This document shows positions 27,125 to 35,484 of a DNA stretch of 64,000 bases, piece after piece; position 1 is the stretch's first letter; each line of letters starts with the position of its first letter. Below the pieces are notes generated by a model. It was not told the origin of the DNA. It did no database searches and saw nothing but the letters and a program-made list of their open reading frames with translations. This DNA is from Treponemataceae bacterium (lineage in GTDB: Bacteria > Spirochaetota > Spirochaetia > Treponematales > Rectinemataceae). The position numbers and the translations under genes are program-made. The DNA lies in NCBI GenBank assembly GCA_963677895.2, contig CAXXGJ010000038.1, positions 288,001-352,000 on the forward strand, in the 5' to 3' direction.

Positions 27125-27209
27125 ACTCCAGTGTGATTTGAACTAAGCAAATCGCTTTTCATGCGAAGCATTGCTTCGCGATTCATTTTCCTTTCGGAGG
27201 ATATGCCTA

Positions 27210-30200
27210 ATGGCTAAAAAGAAATTCGTGTACGCGTTTGGAAGCGGTATCGCAGAGGGCGCCGGAATGAGCAAAGACATTCTCGGCGGCAAAGGCGCCG
27301 GACTCATGGAGATGACCAAGATCGGTCTTCCCGTTCCCGCCGGCTTTACGATCAGCATTCCCTCCTGTGAGGAGTATTTCAAGGCCGGACGCAAACTCCC
27401 GAAGGCGATCGTCGACGAAGTGAAAACCGCCGTCATAAAGCTGGAAAAAATGGTCGGCAAGAAACTCGGCGATTCCAAGGATCCCCTCCTCGTCTCCGTC
27501 CGCTCAGGCGCGGCGCGCTCCATGCCCGGCATGCTCGAGACTATCCTCAACCTCGGCCTCAACGACGAATCCGTTCAGGGTCTCGCCGCCGTCACGAATA
27601 ATCCCCGTTTCGCCTACGACAGCTACCGCCGCTTCATCCAGATGTATTCCACCACGGCCATGGGGCTTTCCAAAGAGCCTATGGAAGAAATGCTAAGCGA
27701 GATGAAGAGCAAGCTCGGATTCAAGAACGACACCGAACTCAGCGCCGACAACCTCAAGGAACTCTGCGAGGAATTCAAGGCGTTTTATAAGAAAAACAAG
27801 AAAGATGATTTCCCGCAGGATCCGATGGAACAGCTCTGGGGCGCCATCGACGCCGTCTTCAATTCATGGGAAGCGGACAAGTCCGTAACCTACCGCCGCG
27901 TCGAGAAAATCACCGACCTCAAGGGCACCGCCGTGAACGTCGTGCAGATGGTGTTCGGCAACAAAGGCGACAACTCCGGCACCGGCGTATGCTTTACCCG
28001 CGACCCCAACTCCGGCGAGAACGTTTTCTACGGTGACTGCCTCATCAACGCCCAGGGCGAAGATGTCGTCGCGGGAATCCGCACGCCCATGAAGCTCGCC
28101 GAACTCGGCACCAAGCTTCCCAAGGCTTACAAACAGCTACTCAAGGTCCGTAAGACCCTCGAGAAGAACTTCAAGGAAATGCAGGACCTCGAGTTCACGA
28201 TTGAGGACGAGAAGCTCTACATGCTTCAGTGCCGCACCGGCAAGCGCCTTCCCTCCGCGGCCTTCAAGATCGCGGTGGATATGGTCAACGAAGGACTCAT
28301 CACAAAGGCGGAAGCCATTTCCCGCATAAGCCCCGAGCAGATCGAGGGCGTCTTCTATCCCATCATCGACGTCGCCGCCACCGGCGCCGCCAGGCTCAAG
28401 GAACTGAAGCTCGCCACGGGCATCGACGCCGTCCCCGGCGCCGCCGCGGGCAAGCTCGTGTTCAACGCCGCCGACGCCGAAGCCATGGCTCTGGCCGGCG
28501 AGAAGACCATTCTCATCCGCCGCGAAACCAGCCCCGAAGACGTCGGCGGCATGTTCGCCGCCCAGGGCATCCTCACCGCGACTGGCGGCAAGACATCCCA
28601 CGCGGCCGTCGTGGCCCGCGGATGGGGCAAGTGCTGCATCGTCGGCTGCGAAGCCCTCGATATCGACGAGAAGGCCAAGACCGTAAAAGTCGGCGGCAAG
28701 ATTCTCAAACAGGGCGATGAAGTGACCATCAACGGCACCACCGGCGACGTATTCATCAGCGCTCTCCCCCTGAAAAAGCCCGAACAGACCAAGGAATTCA
28801 AGACGCTGCTTGGCTGGTGCGACGAAATTCGCACCCTCAAGGTCCGCACCAACGCGGACACGCCCCACGACGCTCAGAAGGCTGTCGAGCTCGGCGCCGA
28901 AGGCATCGGCCTCTGCCGCACCGAACACATGTTCTTCAAGGATTTCAAAGTCCCCGCCAATTCGGAAAAGCGCCAGCTCGCCATCCAGGAAATGATCATC
29001 GCCGACGATGTCGAAACCCGCAAGAAGGCGCTCGCCAAGCTCCTTCCCTTCCAGCAGGGCGATTTCGAGGGCATCTTCGAGGCCATGAACGGCAAGCCCG
29101 TCACCATCCGCCTCATCGATCCTCCCCTTCACGAGTTCACGCCCAAAGATGACGCGGGCGTCGACAAGCTCGCCAAGATCACCGGCAAGACCCCCGAATT
29201 CATAAGGATGCGCTGCGACCAGCTCCATGAGTCCAACCCCATGCTCGGCCACCGCGGATGCCGCCTCTGCATCACCTATCCCGAGATTCTCGACATGCAG
29301 GTGACCGCCATCATCCAGGCCGCCGTCAACATGGAGAAGAAGGGCATCAAAGTGCTCCCCGAGATCATGATCCCCCTCACCATCGACAAGAAAGAGTTCA
29401 AGATCCTCGCCGATCAGACGAGGGGCGTGGCCGATCCCATCATCGCCAAGGCAAAATCCAAGATCACCTACATGGTCGGCACGATGATCGAGATTCCCCG
29501 CGCCGCCCTCCTCGCCGACGAGATCGCCGAGGAAGCGGAATTCTTCTCCTTCGGGACGAACGACCTCACCCAGATGACCTTAGGCCTCTCGCGCGACGAC
29601 GCCGGCCGATTCCTCCCCGATTATGTTAAGGCCGAGAAAGAAGGCGGAAAAGAGATCTTCGCGAACGATCCTTTCGTAAGCATCGACCAGGCAGGCGTGG
29701 GCAAGCTCGTGAAAATGGGCATAGCCGGCGGCCGCTCGACGCGCAAGAATCTCAAGGTTGGCATCTGCGGAGAACACGGCGGCGAAGCCAAATCCGTCAA
29801 GTTCTGCCACGCCGCGGGAATGAACTACGTTTCCTGCTCGCCTTTCCGCGTGCCTATCGCCCGCCTAGCGGCCGCCCAGGCCGTGATCGAGGAAAAAGCC
29901 GCTGCCAAGGCCGTCAAGACTGTAAAAGCGCCGGCTAAAAAGGCAAGCTCCGCCGCCAAAAAAGTCGCCGTGAAAGCGGCCGACGTCAAGGCAAAACGCG
30001 GCAGACCGGCCGCCAAAGCCGAAAAAGCCATGGCCCCGGCCAAGGCATCGAAAACCCTCAAGGCAGCCAAAGTCTCCAAGACCGGCGCAAAACCGGCGGC
30101 GAAAGCCCCCGCCAAGAAAGCCATTGCCAAGAAAGCCGCTGTCCGAAAAACCCCCGTCAAAGCGGCGGTTAACGAGGTTAAATCGACTCGAGGAAGAAAG

Positions 30201-30404
30201 CCGACTGCAGTAAAAGCGCTGTCGACCAAGACGCCCGCCGTCAAGAAGACGGTCAAGACCGCCGCCAAGGCCGCAGTCAAGACCGCTGTGAAAACAGCAG
30301 CCAAAACTCCGGCTAAAGCAGCCGCGAAGACCAAGAAAACCGCGGCGGCGGTTTCCACGAAACGCCATGTTGGCAGGCCCAAGGGAACGTCCAAGAAATC
30401 ATGA
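27210..30404 (+). CDS. ppdK: Pyruvate, phosphate dikinase with C-terminal Lys/Ala-rich histone-like extension
   Basis: LGGKGAGL, LLVSVRSGA..SMPGM, GGKTSHAAVVAR (phospho-His), EGIGLCRTEHMF, SFGTNDLTQ, GICGEHGG; ATG 27210 after GGAGG. Confidence 0.96.
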   Translation: MAKKKFVYAFGSGIAEGAGMSKDILGGKGAGLMEMTKIGLPVPAGFTISIPSCEEYFKAGRKLPKAIVDEVKTAVIKLEKMVGKKLGDSKDPLLVSVRSGAARSMPGMLETILNLGLNDESVQGLAAVTNNPRFAYDSYRRFIQMYSTTAMGLSKEPMEEMLSEMKSKLGFKNDTELSADNLKELCEEFKAFYKKNKKDDFPQDPMEQLWGAIDAVFNSWEADKSVTYRRVEKITDLKGTAVNVVQMVFGNKGDNSGTGVCFTRDPNSGENVFYGDCLINAQGEDVVAGIRTPMKLAELGTKLPKAYKQLLKVRKTLEKNFKEMQDLEFTIEDEKLYMLQCRTGKRLPSAAFKIAVDMVNEGLITKAEAISRISPEQIEGVFYPIIDVAATGAARLKELKLATGIDAVPGAAAGKLVFNAADAEAMALAGEKTILIRRETSPEDVGGMFAAQGILTATGGKTSHAAVVARGWGKCCIVGCEALDIDEKAKTVKVGGKILKQGDEVTINGTTGDVFISALPLKKPEQTKEFKTLLGWCDEIRTLKVRTNADTPHDAQKAVELGAEGIGLCRTEHMFFKDFKVPANSEKRQLAIQEMIIADDVETRKKALAKLLPFQQGDFEGIFEAMNGKPVTIRLIDPPLHEFTPKDDAGVDKLAKITGKTPEFIRMRCDQLHESNPMLGHRGCRLCITYPEILDMQVTAIIQAAVNMEKKGIKVLPEIMIPLTIDKKEFKILADQTRGVADPIIAKAKSKITYMVGTMIEIPRAALLADEIAEEAEFFSFGTNDLTQMTLGLSRDDAGRFLPDYVKAEKEGGKEIFANDPFVSIDQAGVGKLVKMGIAGGRSTRKNLKVGICGEHGGEAKSVKFCHAAGMNYVSCSPFRVPIARLAAAQAVIEEKAAAKAVKTVKAPAKKASSAAKKVAVKAADVKAKRGRPAAKAEKAMAPAKASKTLKAAKVSKTGAKPAAKAPAKKAIAKKAAVRKTPVKAAVNEVKSTRGRKPTAVKALSTKTPAVKKTVKTAAKAAVKTAVKTAAKTPAKAAAKTKKTAAAVSTKRHVGRPKGTSKKS

Positions 30405-30429
30405 GGCTTGATGGCTCCATGTAGAAACT

Positions 30430-30466
30430 AAAAAAGGGTTGTCCGGAAACGGACAACCCTTTTTTT
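30430..30466. terminator. Bidirectional intrinsic terminator (ppdK / dtd)
   Basis: A6-GGGTTGTCCG-GAAA-CGGACAACCC-T7. Confidence 0.9.
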
Positions 30467-30495
30467 ATTCCGGCGACCTCGCCTCGGCAATTTTC

Positions 30496-30957
30496 CTAAA
30501 AAAGTTTTTTGGAATCGAGGAGGATAGTGATGGGGCCCTCGTTCACGTAGGCGACGCGCATGATTTCCCCGAAGCGGCCTGTCTCGACACGGATTCCCCC
30601 GGCCGAGAGCGATCGGCAAAAATGTTCATAGAGGCTGAAAGCCGCATCGTTTCCGGCCGCGTCGGAGTAAGACGGCCGCCTTCCCTTCCTCGCGTCCGCA
30701 TAGAGGGTGAACTGGGAAACCGCTAAAACCCCATAGCCGAGATCGACGAGGGATAGATTCATTTTTTCCTCATCGTCCATGAATATCCGGAGATGGGCGA
30801 CCTTGTCCGCCAGGTATTCGGCGTCCGTTTCGGAATCGTCCTTGCCCACGCCCAGATACACAAGAAGCCCCTGATCGATGGCTCCGGCGATAGCGACGTT
30901 ATCGGCCTCCCCTATTGTCACGCTCGCCGAGGATACTCTCTGTACGACGGCTCTCAT
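30496..30957 (-). CDS. dtd: D-aminoacyl-tRNA deacylase
   Basis: MRAVVQRV, SQFTL, KGRRPS, NEGPIT; start reassigned to 30957. Confidence 0.95.
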   Translation of the reverse strand: MRAVVQRVSSASVTIGEADNVAIAGAIDQGLLVYLGVGKDDSETDAEYLADKVAHLRIFMDDEEKMNLSLVDLGYGVLAVSQFTLYADARKGRRPSYSDAAGNDAAFSLYEHFCRSLSAGGIRVETGRFGEIMRVAYVNEGPITILLDSKKLF

Positions 30958-31841: not shown

Positions 31842-32786
31842 ATGTACATGGTAAATCTAGATCGCGTCCCTTCGCTTCTGGCACTGGGATATGAATGCCT
31901 CAAGAACGCCGATCTCGGCAACGCTTCACGATTTTTCGACGAAGCGCTTTATGAGGATTTTGACAACGGCGAGGTCCTTTTTTCCATGAAGTGCGCCCAG
32001 TTCTGGCGCGAACGAATCGATGAGGCGGGCCTATTGGAGACGCCGCTTCTGAAAGGCGACCAGATCGTGGCGAGGTGGAAGACCTTCCAGTCTTTTCTCT
32101 CTAGGATCACCGGCGATTTCGAGATGGCGAAATACGCTTTCAGACGTATGGCCTTCAGCGTGGCCTTGGATTTTTTCCTGGCCATTCCCGATGAGGAAAA
32201 GACGGCCCTCGGTGCCGAATTCGATTTCCGTCTGGGAAGATGCAGGAAAGCGCTGGGCGATTACGAGACGGCTCAACAGCATCTTGAGCGGGCGGTGAAG
32301 TGCAGGAAGGATGAAGCGCGCTATCTGGCTGAACTGGCCGACTGCCACGCTCTTTCCGGAGAGCATCGCCAATCCAAGGTTCTTTTTCGGGAGGCTTTTT
32401 TTATTGGCCCCGACAAGATAGACCTCGAGTTGCTGGAATCCGATACGATCCACAAACTCGTCGAAATAGCGAAGGGAAAGGGATTTCCGGAAAAGGAAGT
32501 TCCTGAATGGATTCCGGTCTATGGCGAACTCACCGGTCTGTTCGGGGTAAAGCGCGAACTGGGCCCTTCGGAAAGCTCGCGGCTCAATTCTTCCATGTTC
32601 CAGCTGGAGAACGATCTCCGCGAGAATCCCGCGATGAGCGCCACGCTGAAGCCTCGCCTTCTGAACCGATATTTCTGGATTCTGGATCATTACGAGGCGT
32701 CCGGCGCCGAAAAGGCGCGGAGCGAAAAAATATTGCTGAAAATCCGGCTGCTCGATGAGGATATCTTCAAGCAGTATGTATCATAG
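31842..32786 (+). CDS. TPR-like hypothetical protein upstream of greA
   Basis: TPR-like helices (LGRCRKALGDYETA..HLERA); TTGACT-N18-TAGTAT upstream (31786-31815). Confidence 0.7.
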   Translation: MYMVNLDRVPSLLALGYECLKNADLGNASRFFDEALYEDFDNGEVLFSMKCAQFWRERIDEAGLLETPLLKGDQIVARWKTFQSFLSRITGDFEMAKYAFRRMAFSVALDFFLAIPDEEKTALGAEFDFRLGRCRKALGDYETAQQHLERAVKCRKDEARYLAELADCHALSGEHRQSKVLFREAFFIGPDKIDLELLESDTIHKLVEIAKGKGFPEKEVPEWIPVYGELTGLFGVKRELGPSESSRLNSSMFQLENDLRENPAMSATLKPRLLNRYFWILDHYEASGAEKARSEKILLKIRLLDEDIFKQYVS

Positions 32787-32799
32787 AGAGGAGAACGCT

Positions 32800-35484
32800 A
32801 TGGCAGAAACCCAGCTTGCTGGCAAAGTGCAAGAAATGCTCAACGAAGAGAAATGGACGAGATCGACGCTCCAGAACTATTCCGTCAACAGCCTGAAAGA
32901 GCTGGATGCACTTATCGAAGAGGCCGAAGCGAGCTCTGCCGTAGAAGAACTTTTCCAGGTTTGCGACGAACATCTCACGCAGACGAAGAGCAGCGTCATC
33001 GCTCTCTATGTGGCCGGAATCATCGCCCTGCGCAAGCAGCCTTCCGACGAATCCTACCTTTCGCAGCTCATGGATCTTTTCGCTGAAGGCAAACGCACGA
33101 ACATCGTCGAGTTCGTATGCCTGAGGATTCTCGATTACGGCGAGAACAGGATCGCCCTGGCCCGCCTCGCGGAATGCTATGAGAGCGACGAGAAAACCGA
33201 AGAGCGTTATGCGACCTGGGAAAGGCTCATCAAGATAGACTACGAGGAAGCGGACATCGTCAAGATGATCGCCGAGCGCAAAGACAAGCTCGGGCTTCGC
33301 GAAGACGCGATCGACTTCTACAAGAAAGCTCTCCTGCGCTACATCAACAAGGGTCTGCCCACCAACGTGCGCGAGATATGGCTCAAGCTTGTCGATTATT
33401 GTCCCGAGGACATCGATTATTTCTTCCATGTCCAGAAAAAAATCGCCTCTGTGATTTCCCCGGACAAGGCCGCCATGCTGCTCATGGACCTCTACGCGAA
33501 CTACAAGGCTAAAAAGGAATGGAGCACGGCCCTCGATATCCTGAAGCTGGTCATCGATTACGACGAGAAAAATCCCGCCATGCGCAAAGAACTCATCGAG
33601 TGCTATTCGGGCAAGTACGCCGGGCACTCCAGGCTCCAGGATTATCTCAAACTCTCCAATATCAACCAATCATACCGCGCCCTGCATGAAGCGATGGACG
33701 ATTTCGAAAAGCACATCGTATTCGACGTTGGCAACTTCGTCTTTCACAGAACCTGGAACATCGGCCGCATCGCTGTAGTCAAGGGTGACGAGGTCACCAT
33801 CGATTTCGCGAAGTCCAGAGGGCATAAGATGTCCCTGAAGATGGCCATCGACAGCCTCATGCCTCTTTCCAAGGATCATATTTGGGTGCTCAAGGCTATC
33901 TGGCCCAAGGATAAGCTTCGCGAGAAGATTAAGACCGATATCGTCTGGACGCTCAAGAACATCATAAAGAGCTTCGACAACAAGGCAGAACTGAAGCGCG
34001 TAAAGGCCGAACTCGTGCCCGCCGTCCTCACCGCCAGCGAATGGAACAGCTGGAGCGCCAAGGCCAAGGAAATTCTCAAGACCGACGCTTCCTTCGGCAA
34101 CGCCGCCGACGATATCTCGACCTTCATCGTCAGGGACAGGCCTCTATCCTACGAGGAAAAAGTCTACATCCAGTTCAAGGCCGAGAAGAATTACTTCGAC
34201 CGCGTCGTGTATTTCAGGGATTACATCGAGACCAACGATTTTGATTCGGATTATTTCTCTGAGATGCTCACCTATTTCCAGAGCTTCCTCAAATCCTACC
34301 AGTCGGTGGATGAGCACGTCATCGCCTCCTACCTCCTCCTGAAGGAACTCGCGACTAAGTACCCGAGACTCCAGCAGGGCGTTCAGATCAAGTTCGCCGA
34401 TCTTTTCGCCCAGATAGACAATCCCCTGGCCATATACCTGAACCTCAAGGACAGCGATCTCAGGAACGCCTATATCCTGCACATCAAGAACTTCATCCCC
34501 AGCTGGCCGGAAATCTATATCAAGCTGCTGCCCTATGCCCGTTCCATGCGCATGCTCGACGCGCTCAAGACCGCTGGACATTCAGCCAAGCTCAAGAAGA
34601 TGGGCATGGACATCGTCGAGAACTACAAGGACTACCGGGAAGCCTTCATCTGGCTCATCAAGGATCTCCGCGAGGAGCCCTGGTTCGCCGAACTCGGCAT
34701 CGTGTACGAAAAGATACTCCTCACCCTTCTCCATATCCTCGACATCACGTTCAAGGAAATCGACAACCACAAGGACACCTCGGAAAACCGCAAGGTCAAC
34801 AGGCTGGTCCAGAACATCCTCTTCAAGGAAAACGTGCTCGAGAAGTTCCTCCTCGAGACCAACATTGAAACCACGGAGCGCGTCTACGCCCTCCTCATGG
34901 ACATCAAGGAAGTGGATCCCGCGATCAAGCTGAGCATCAAGCACAAGATTTCCGAGAAGTATCCCAACCTCCGCTTCTTCGGCGAAGAGGAAAAGCTCAC
35001 CGTCTCGCGCGGGCTCATCGTCACTTCGGAAAAATATTCGGAAAAGCAGAAGCTCCTTCAGTCGATCATGGAAGTGGACGTGCCGCTGAACCAGAAGGAA
35101 ATCGCCTTCGCCCTGTCCCTGGGAGATCTGCGCGAAAACGCCGAATACAAGGCCTCCAAGGAGAAGCAGGACGAGCTGAACGCCAAGGTCGGCAAGCTCA
35201 AGAATGAGCTGGAAAAAGCCCAGATCTTCGACAAATCCACGATCACGACCACGAAGATTTCCTTCGGGACGAAGGCGACGCTCGCCAACGAACTGACGGG
35301 CGAAAAGGAATACTACACGATCCTCGGCCCCTGGGAATCAGACCCGGCCAAGGACATCATTTCATACCTCTCGCCCCTCGGCAAAAAACTCTTCAACCAT
35401 AAAGTGGGAGAGCGCCTGACCTTCGCGATACACGACAGGAAGTTCCAGTATCTCATCGAGAGCATCGAAGTGGCTGATCTTTGA
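32800..35484 (+). CDS. greA: Transcription elongation factor GreA, long spirochaete form
   Basis: C-terminal GDLRENAEY, TILGPWESD, ISYLSPLG; about 740-aa N-terminal extension; ATG 32800 after GAGGAG. Confidence 0.9.
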   Translation: MAETQLAGKVQEMLNEEKWTRSTLQNYSVNSLKELDALIEEAEASSAVEELFQVCDEHLTQTKSSVIALYVAGIIALRKQPSDESYLSQLMDLFAEGKRTNIVEFVCLRILDYGENRIALARLAECYESDEKTEERYATWERLIKIDYEEADIVKMIAERKDKLGLREDAIDFYKKALLRYINKGLPTNVREIWLKLVDYCPEDIDYFFHVQKKIASVISPDKAAMLLMDLYANYKAKKEWSTALDILKLVIDYDEKNPAMRKELIECYSGKYAGHSRLQDYLKLSNINQSYRALHEAMDDFEKHIVFDVGNFVFHRTWNIGRIAVVKGDEVTIDFAKSRGHKMSLKMAIDSLMPLSKDHIWVLKAIWPKDKLREKIKTDIVWTLKNIIKSFDNKAELKRVKAELVPAVLTASEWNSWSAKAKEILKTDASFGNAADDISTFIVRDRPLSYEEKVYIQFKAEKNYFDRVVYFRDYIETNDFDSDYFSEMLTYFQSFLKSYQSVDEHVIASYLLLKELATKYPRLQQGVQIKFADLFAQIDNPLAIYLNLKDSDLRNAYILHIKNFIPSWPEIYIKLLPYARSMRMLDALKTAGHSAKLKKMGMDIVENYKDYREAFIWLIKDLREEPWFAELGIVYEKILLTLLHILDITFKEIDNHKDTSENRKVNRLVQNILFKENVLEKFLLETNIETTERVYALLMDIKEVDPAIKLSIKHKISEKYPNLRFFGEEEKLTVSRGLIVTSEKYSEKQKLLQSIMEVDVPLNQKEIAFALSLGDLRENAEYKASKEKQDELNAKVGKLKNELEKAQIFDKSTITTTKISFGTKATLANELTGEKEYYTILGPWESDPAKDIISYLSPLGKKLFNHKVGERLTFAIHDRKFQYLIESIEVADL

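Follow-up and report, generated by a model that had tools for sequence, protein, structure and literature searches.

A basic, AT-hook-like tail on the pyruvate phosphate dikinase of Rectinemataceae and its possible role as a nucleoid tether

Why would an enzyme of central metabolism end in a chain resembling histone H1? This question is raised by a 64,000-nucleotide stretch of DNA (hereafter “the window”) from a spirochaete of the family Rectinemataceae, whose genome we call G000; positions are in window numbering on the + strand. The gene for pyruvate phosphate dikinase (ppdK, encoding PPDK) forms a single frame from an ATG at 27210 to a TGA at 30402–30404. Its 1064 residues comprise a catalytic core (residues 1–890, 27210–29879) followed by a basic Lys/Ala/Val/Thr/Pro tail of 174 residues with a net charge of +47 (29880–30401). 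An initial annotation had suggested that this tail might attach the enzyme to the nucleoid, RNA, or polyphosphate, or that PPDK might moonlight as a nucleoid protein coupling energy state to the chromosome. Here, we find the tail in all complete orthologues across the family, with motifs that appear AT-hook-like in the window and canonical in one genus, and on balance we favor DNA as the target.

The tail is composed of 51 Ala, 45 Lys, 18 Val, 17 Thr, 10 Pro, 9 Ser, 7 Arg, 5 Gly, and other residues, with no aromatics. A recount of the 169 codons at 29895–30401 (A50, K45, V17, T17, P10, S9, R7, G5, three acidic residues, and no Phe, Trp, or Tyr) agrees with the composition initially annotated. 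In an AlphaFold2 model, the last helix stops at residue 903, and residues 904–1064 are coil with pLDDT < 50. The model was built from a 20-sequence alignment and has a mean pLDDT of 62.9, with parts of the core low too, so that composition counts as much as the model for the predicted disorder beyond residue 903. Overall, the tail is long, Lys/Ala/Pro-rich, acid-poor, aromatic-free, and predicted to be disordered, as is typical of H1-like tails. Pfam detects no family in it after the PPDK domains, including no match to HC2 (PF07382), and the G+C content at third codon positions (GC3) is 0.65, compared to 0.81 in the core. Only 5 of 19,503 six-frame open reading frames (ORFs) in G000 pass a basic low-complexity filter, and the PPDK tail is the longest of them. 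Shorter basic Lys/Ala extensions occur at the N-termini of two G000 proteins (G000:C38:508428-510749 and G000:C25:305010-305798, both on the − strand), presumably topoisomerase I and ribosomal protein L5, respectively, as judged from motifs.

The initial annotation had treated core and tail as one protein, and this holds at the junction (29880–29900): a contig from run X3 (study P2) spans 29475–30500 with 0 differences, one from X4 (P3) covers 29300–30046 with 3, and one from X9 (P4), with 25 differences and 3 missing bases, extends across the junction. This check covered the region 29300–30500 in 4 of 21 listed runs, of which X1 may be the source run, and used contigs rather than raw reads; together with the tailed orthologues described below, the three contigs rule out an assembly fusion of two genes. 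RNA runs contained just 0.05–0.16 of the sequence words. Two antisense ORFs (29825–30394 and 29865–30368) were considered and rejected as shadow frames. Among the 61 family tails, 52 keep one antisense frame open, since a stop there needs sense Tyr, His, or Gln codons, which are nearly missing from the tails; other frames are open in 4–31 of the 61.

Three short motifs stand out in the tail, and all three named in the initial annotation could be located: KRGRP (hook 1, residues 929–933, 29994–30008), TRGRKP (hook 2, residues 993–998, 30186–30203), and VGRPKG within a terminal KRxVGRPKG(S/T)xKK (hook 3, residues 1051–1063, 30360–30398). Composition-preserving shuffling (n = 200,000) yields a mean of 0.064 GR(P/K) occurrences against the 3 observed (p = 1.5e-5, for a pattern picked post hoc). 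AT-hooks are described as a GRP core with Lys/Arg flanks, in which the RGR arginines enter the minor groove (PMC11354804, PMC4615771, PMC4209074), and type-I hooks are marked by GSKNK after the RGR core (available text of PMC4209074). In the window, the GRP core is closely flanked by Lys/Arg in hooks 1 and 3. Hook 1 has the full RGRP core, hook 2 has RGRK, with Lys for Pro, and hook 3 has VGRP, i.e., a Val variant of a type-I AT-hook. After the core, the window and most other tails have G(S/T)(S/T/G)KK, while a genus designated g17 has the exact GSKNK type. Because the first core Arg is missing from window hook 3, the G000 motifs are properly called “AT-hook-like”; by their sequence, the g17 motifs are AT-hooks.

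To what extent is this arrangement shared? Among 69 family genomes examined, a PPDK of the window type was found in 62, with no such match in 7. All 61 tails uncut by a contig end are basic (net charge +0.19 to +0.38 per residue), with lengths of 40–189 residues (median 96), and 56 of the 61 lack aromatics. Three tail ends are damaged (G031, G084, and G092); in G031 (L038, G031:C48), a frameshift, either an assembly error or a real truncation, lies in a short tail repeat, and the terminal hook carries on in another frame. At 78 more distant PPDK loci (80 matches minus 2 duplicates), a median of 7 residues follows the same anchor, and only three loci, from two spirochaetes and one Phycisphaerae, have an extension of at least 40. 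For genomes of the same order outside the family, the best PPDK (15 of 24 read) has a tail of 28–119 residues in ten cases and 7–8 residues in five.

The motifs are strongly enriched in these tails. Over the 62 family tails, GR(P/K) occurs 83 times versus 4.4 expected (~19-fold; maximum 12 in 1000 shuffles) and RGRP 37 times versus 0.09 expected, with order controls of 66 for GRP, 0 for GPR, 0 for RPG, and 3 for RGP; these counts come from related, non-independent genomes and include the tail of G088, a probable chimera. RGRP is present in 31 of the 62 tails. Across 13 hook-bearing genera, every tail (36/36) has at least one GR(P/K), and 30 of 36 have the terminal hook. Both the tail and its GRP motifs thus extend well beyond the single genome of the initial annotation, with basic tails in 61/61 orthologues and hooks in 13 genera. 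A protein search with the window C-terminal region retrieved the same terminal motif in 21 of 22 tails of at least 110 residues and in none of 71 tails of 40–109 residues, from a list biased towards the query (119 of 121 proteins anchored, including the query). The Val before GRP is invariant in the 21 database proteins with the terminal motif. Two other PPDKs, P0014 and P0020, have tails holding 3–5 tandem GRP repeats, which are apparently independent hook expansions.

The hooks are also conserved relative to the linkers between them. The proportion of non-synonymous differences (pN) was lower in motif windows than in linkers for 9 of 9 genome pairs. Between G000 and G001, motifs displayed non-synonymous differences at 0 of 55 sites, while linkers had a pN of 0.076 and a synonymous rate (pS) of 0.325, and the two internal indels that separate these tails are both in frame. 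The nine pairs, from 11 planned (a tenth had no motif), overlap, and alignments of such low-complexity sequence are uncertain. By this measure, the hooks are under selective constraint.

We then asked what kind of hook the terminal motif represents. Of 30 genomes compared, 21 have Val before GRP, 8 have Arg, and 1 has Pro. All Arg forms belong to g17, where RGRP-x-GSKN(K/R) terminates 8 of 11 tails. The Pfam AT-hook model (PF02178) matches all 11 g17 tails at E ≤ 0.062, with its cut-off reached by 5 of them. The sole PDB match of the G018 tail is the HMGA1 hook-2 peptide 2EZD, with one difference over 13 residues. A terminal-motif profile (18 segments, 16 with Val) searched against 177,635 PDB sequences returned two matches, 2EZD (HMGA1 hook 2, E = 1.4e-4) and WhiB7 (E = 1.6). 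The same profile retrieved 113 proteins from 1.84 billion representatives; among the best 68, which were scanned for families (E ≤ 1e-5), 46 had none, 3 had AT_hook only, and 19 had another family. The annotated carriers include nine DDE transposases, an S24 repressor type, a phage integrase, Ros/MucR, ORC2, an HMG box, an iron repressor, and an exonuclease; we take 16 of the 19 to act on DNA, the remaining three being Ppx/GppA, DUF5771, and DUF5568, with non-DNA or unassigned roles. Separately, the Ppx/GppA-family protein (P0140) holds six repeated AT-hooks and is thus a further hook-bearing enzyme of phosphate metabolism.

Some single proteins carry both Val and Arg forms in alternation (e.g., P0164, P0168, P0175, and P0183), and we therefore read the Val form as most likely a variant hook. 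The AT-hook reading of the initial annotation is strengthened, in that the orthologous terminal motif is of canonical type I in Rectinema-type genomes. The window version has Val for the first core Arg and misses PF02178. The canonical form of the orthologous hook favors DNA over polyphosphate as a target. One family tail, that of G024, passes the HC2 model (PF07382; 44.8 bits, cut-off 40), a match that is probably compositional.

A cultured relative, Rectinema cohabitans HM, encodes a PPDK with a 69-residue tail that carries RGRP, RGRKP, and a terminal RGRP-x-GSKNK (PMC6052044 supplements), i.e., hooks in the same order as in the window and of the same type as in g17. In glucose-grown cells, the supplementary tables list this PPDK with 72 peptides, 75.4% coverage, and 557 tandem mass spectrometry (MS/MS) counts, next to 559 for GAPDH, 109 for pyruvate kinase, and 102 for a “DNA-binding protein HRL18” (PMC6052044), although the word “dikinase” is absent from the main text. 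This suggests that PPDK is abundant in R. cohabitans.

Tail and core seem to have had different histories. The family PPDK cores form two groups that are ~68% identical throughout: core A, including that of the window, groups with Omnitrophota and Planctomycetota, and core B with other spirochaetes. Both core types sit between dinB and dtd (B in G015, G016, and G012; A in G005, G017, G019, G021, and G036), and in most of these the neighbor genes of core A and core B loci are about equally diverged. In a RpoB/RpoC tree of 44 genomes, the window falls in an 18-genome clade (SH-aLRT likelihood-ratio support 100) whose early branches carry core B and later ones core A, and the terminal hook is found in every member with an intact, complete PPDK. 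To explain the terminal hook takes 2 changes on the RpoB/RpoC tree versus 5 on the PPDK core tree; to explain core type takes 8 on the species tree. A single clade of hook-bearing cores was rejected (approximately unbiased test, p-AU = 2.7e-41), for a group defined by the motif after the first tree. These trees were obtained with FastTree and quick IQ-TREE runs without bootstraps, and their row sets differ. The simplest reading would be that the locus received a new catalytic core on more than one occasion and kept its resident tail, whose hooks track the species tree. This pattern points to vertical inheritance of the tail but not, alone, to selection, because the geometry of recombination could leave a 3′ tail in place.

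A mosaic PPDK in G088 (foreign first ~760 residues, resident end and tail) was considered as a recent core swap and rejected as a likely chimeric assembly, given its single junction and its non-syntenic upstream genes with few matches in G000. At this locus (L239, G088:C23:20000-37000), the foreign-looking region, with a presumed gene order of uvrC, recO, glyQ, glyS, and ppdK, meets the resident ppdK 3′ end at around residue 760. G090 (L238, G090:C218) contains a second, tail-less PPDK that groups with Bacteroidales; this genome is 7% contaminated, and the gene is possibly contamination. A divergent second PPDK-like gene (~45–51% identity) occurs in many relatives (e.g., G008:C70, G011:C22, and G013:C1) and was not found in G000 by the same search.

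Taken together, we consider it probable that the tail is a disordered HMGA/H1-like tether holding an active PPDK dimer on the nucleoid. In bacteria, PPDK is regarded as active in dimeric form, with the C-terminal PEP/pyruvate (PEP: phosphoenolpyruvate) domains as the interface, and it forms ATP there (available text of PMC5556012), so that two tails, with up to six hooks, would emerge from that end. Hooks would occupy AT-rich minor grooves and Lys-rich linkers the DNA backbone; the dimer would sit on the nucleoid, stay catalytically active, and could bridge DNA segments, and PPDK may be abundant enough to serve as an accessory nucleoid protein. Hookless relatives would fulfill the same role less specifically through a pure H1-like tail. 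The possible gain to the cell could be chromosome organization, equal partitioning of the enzyme, or ATP regenerated locally from AMP and pyrophosphate (PPi). A bolder version, in which PPDK is a moonlighting three-hook nucleoid protein, bridging AT-rich DNA and making chromosome structure or transcription depend on PEP/AMP/PPi status, with a tail important enough to survive repeated replacement of the core by foreign PPDK genes, seems doubtful to us.

Several observations weigh against a nucleoid tether. Hooks are dispensable: GR(P/K) is missing altogether from 24 of 62 family tails, and in eight hookless genera the terminal hook is found in 0 of 26 tails and a single GRP in 2 of 26. In hook 3 of 21 of 30 genomes, Val replaces the Arg that enters the groove in the canonical core, and neither the three window motifs nor the whole tail scores against PF02178. 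The association of the terminal motif with DNA comes from 19 carriers, since 46 of the 68 proteins scanned have no Pfam family. Retention of the tail through core replacement could be explained by crossover geometry without selection. G000 encodes three HU-family genes and a stand-alone H1-like protein, leaving no obvious need for another nucleoid protein. The R. cohabitans MS/MS counts scale with protein length and come from a table without peptide positions, and are thus not tail-specific. Hook 2 shares its RGRKP ending with MeCP2 AT-hook 2, described as a much weaker DNA binder that is barely AT-specific (PMC5028900), and AT-hooks also bind RNA (PMC11354804, PMC4615771).

This last point supports a different target. 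The tail might bind RNA (ribosomes, tRNA, or condensates), with PPDK recycling AMP and PPi from aminoacyl-tRNA synthetases to ATP using PEP, which we regard as unlikely. Canonical and extended AT-hooks are both reported to bind RNA, extended ones ~10-fold better than DNA (PMC4615771, PMC11354804), the enzyme forms ATP in bacteria (PMC5556012), the Val variant deviates from the DNA core, and no family-I soluble pyrophosphatase was found in G000. However, basic residues directly flank the GRP core as in canonical hooks, and G000 encodes a membrane H-PPase and a DHHA2 (family II type) protein, so that PPi disposal would not depend on PPDK. In addition, the annotated motif carriers presumably act on DNA in 16 of 19 cases. 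For the same reason as PPi disposal, PPDK as an obligatory PPi clearer at the nucleoid is unsupported. Alternatively, the tail could be a weakly selected polybasic extension that grew by slippage and is generally sticky, without a specific target. The spread in length (40–189 residues), poorly aligning linkers, short basic ends on many unrelated PPDKs, the 24 hookless tails, and the lower GC3 (0.65 versus 0.81) are all consistent with this scenario, but the presence of a tail in 61/61 complete family orthologues, the ~19-fold enrichment of motifs conserved against linkers, and the rarity of such sequences among G000 ORFs (5 of 19,503), which indicates no genome-wide drift, make it improbable.

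Targeting to polyphosphate granules appears very improbable, even though G000 encodes the polyphosphate kinase PPK1, one motif carrier is a Ppx/GppA protein with AT-hooks (P0140), and a 22-residue basic tail localizes Caulobacter Ppk1 to granules (PMC3806658). Charge would suffice for polyphosphate binding, leaving the conserved RGRP-x-GSKNK unneeded, and the PPK1 of G000 has no such tail. The least probable scenario, in our view, is one in which the terminal KRxVGRPKGxxKK serves to dock a protein partner or protease and the rest of the tail acts as a spacer. Such a motif would fit its fixed position at the extreme C-terminus and the prevalence of Val (21/21 database proteins and 21/30 genomes), but the g17 orthologue is the canonical DNA-binding form, and in other proteins the Val form is internal and repeated, next to Arg forms.

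The remainder of the gene supports an otherwise conventional enzyme. A Shine-Dalgarno-like GGAGG (27196–27200) lies 9 nt upstream of the ATG, and family orthologues begin at the same Met. The nucleotide-binding, phosphohistidine, and PEP/pyruvate domains (PF01326, PF00391, and PF02896) follow in order and together cover residues 67–891. Solved bacterial PPDKs match the core full-length with E = 0; in 10 of 11 solved PPDK sequences, the alignment runs from residue 4–5 to 892–895, and the trypanosome enzyme aligns as far as 903. In the TSH motif, His464 (28599–28601) aligns with the phosphocarrier histidine of solved PPDKs and is invariant in 20 of 20 aligned family sequences, and Cys853 of the CGEHGG motif (29766–29768), identified by alignment with solved PPDKs and the family, is presumably the catalytic cysteine. 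The catalytic motifs are thus intact, and this enzyme is presumed to be an active dimer, as described for bacterial PPDK (PMC5556012). This ppdK (27210–30404) is the sole PPDK detected in G000: a search returned two matches, the second being a weak one in a 582-residue frame that we take to be PTS enzyme I. Between ppdK and the convergent dtd lies an intrinsic-terminator-like hairpin flanked by A and T runs (~30430–30468; −29.8 kcal/mol, z = −5.2, with 0 of 200 shuffles equally stable), in line with the “clean terminator” initially annotated, although it is absent from the output of a general terminator scan.

Regarding the metabolic context, G000 also encodes a pyruvate kinase, so that PPDK is not the sole route from PEP to pyruvate, and the PPDK regulatory protein (PF03618) was not found in this 93% complete genome. 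The stand-alone H1-like protein of G000 (~132 residues, L131:4893-5291, i.e., G000:C25:359892-360290, +; relatives L155–L163) begins with a conserved segment of ~35 residues, which a Lys/Ala/Pro linker connects to a (K/R)RGRP hook at the C-terminal end. It was detected in 10 of 61 genomes (genera g1, g4, g16, g20, and g21), with the hook in 9 of 10 and one copy cut by a contig end. It has weak Pfam matches only (HC2, E = 0.003; AT_hook, E = 1.4) and no match in the ESM Atlas (best 0.75), making it a candidate undescribed nucleoid protein of this clade. Downstream of ppdK, the window encodes a 909-residue protein (32755–35484, +), 80–99% identical in most family loci read and presumably ending in a GreA-like domain. 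A “Transcription elongation factor” from the same neighborhood in R. cohabitans has 310 MS/MS counts (PMC6052044).

How does this PPDK compare to known systems? It shares the three-domain core (residues 5–895) and the His464 and Cys853 motifs with canonical PPDK (EC 2.7.9.1; PDB 1KBL, 1DIK, 9PZL, 1VBG, 5JVJ, and 2X0S), but no solved PPDK matches the tail, which adds ~170 basic residues with three hooks. HMGA1 (2EZD) and the type-I hooks of plant AHL proteins are similar through the hook 3 profile match, the GSKNK of g17, and the presence of three hooks in a disordered basic chain, and differ in that the window hooks are fused to a metabolic enzyme, with no acidic segment, long Lys/Ala linkers, a VGRP hook 3, and an RGRK hook 2. 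A bacterial parallel in architecture is the C-terminal domain of Myxococcus xanthus CarD, described in the available text of PMC8156234 as disordered and basic, with RGRP hooks that contact the AT-rich minor groove, and replaceable by HMGA or histone H1. This interchangeability mirrors the occurrence of both hook-bearing and hookless PPDK tails; however, CarD is a regulator that binds RNA polymerase and includes an acidic segment (PMC8156234), while the cargo here is an enzyme with no known DNA role. Low-complexity Lys/Ala/Pro sequences similar to the PPDK tail are also found in chlamydial Hc2 (PF07382) and in mycobacterial Ku and Hlp, whose PAKKA tails contact and appose DNA (PMC3553676), but these tails sit on proteins already DNA-binding. 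The nearest precedent in function is the pyruvate kinase PykA of Bacillus subtilis, which also acts at the PEP node, has a PEPut domain with a PPDK-like TSH motif region, and influences DNA replication, yet works through replication proteins and not a DNA-binding tail (PMC9009071, available text). Finally, Caulobacter Ppk1 uses a basic tail as localization signal on a phosphate-transfer enzyme, as proposed here for PPDK, although that tail has 22 residues, its target is the polyphosphate granule, and the available text of PMC3806658 reports no AT-hooks.

H1/HMGA-like tails on bacterial proteins are thus known, and PPDK with an AT-hook tail is an added case; a search of titles and abstract openings, mostly of open-access literature, found no description of a PPDK with such a tail. 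The present analysis adds family-wide conservation, the canonical type-I form, a tail independent of the core, and a cultured organism suited to tests. In bacteria, AT-hooks are said to be rare (available text of PMC8156234), and the bacterial cases we met are regulators or other DNA-acting proteins, whereas here they occur on an enzyme of central metabolism across 13 genera. The hypothesis is testable in R. cohabitans HM, which is cultured, carries a short tail with canonical hooks, and has a deposited proteome (PXD005624), and the family supplies tails with hooks, with the Val variant, and without hooks as natural comparisons. If binding to DNA is true, the tail would physically and directly connect the PEP/ATP/PPi node to the chromosome, a connection hitherto argued indirectly, as for B. 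subtilis PykA.

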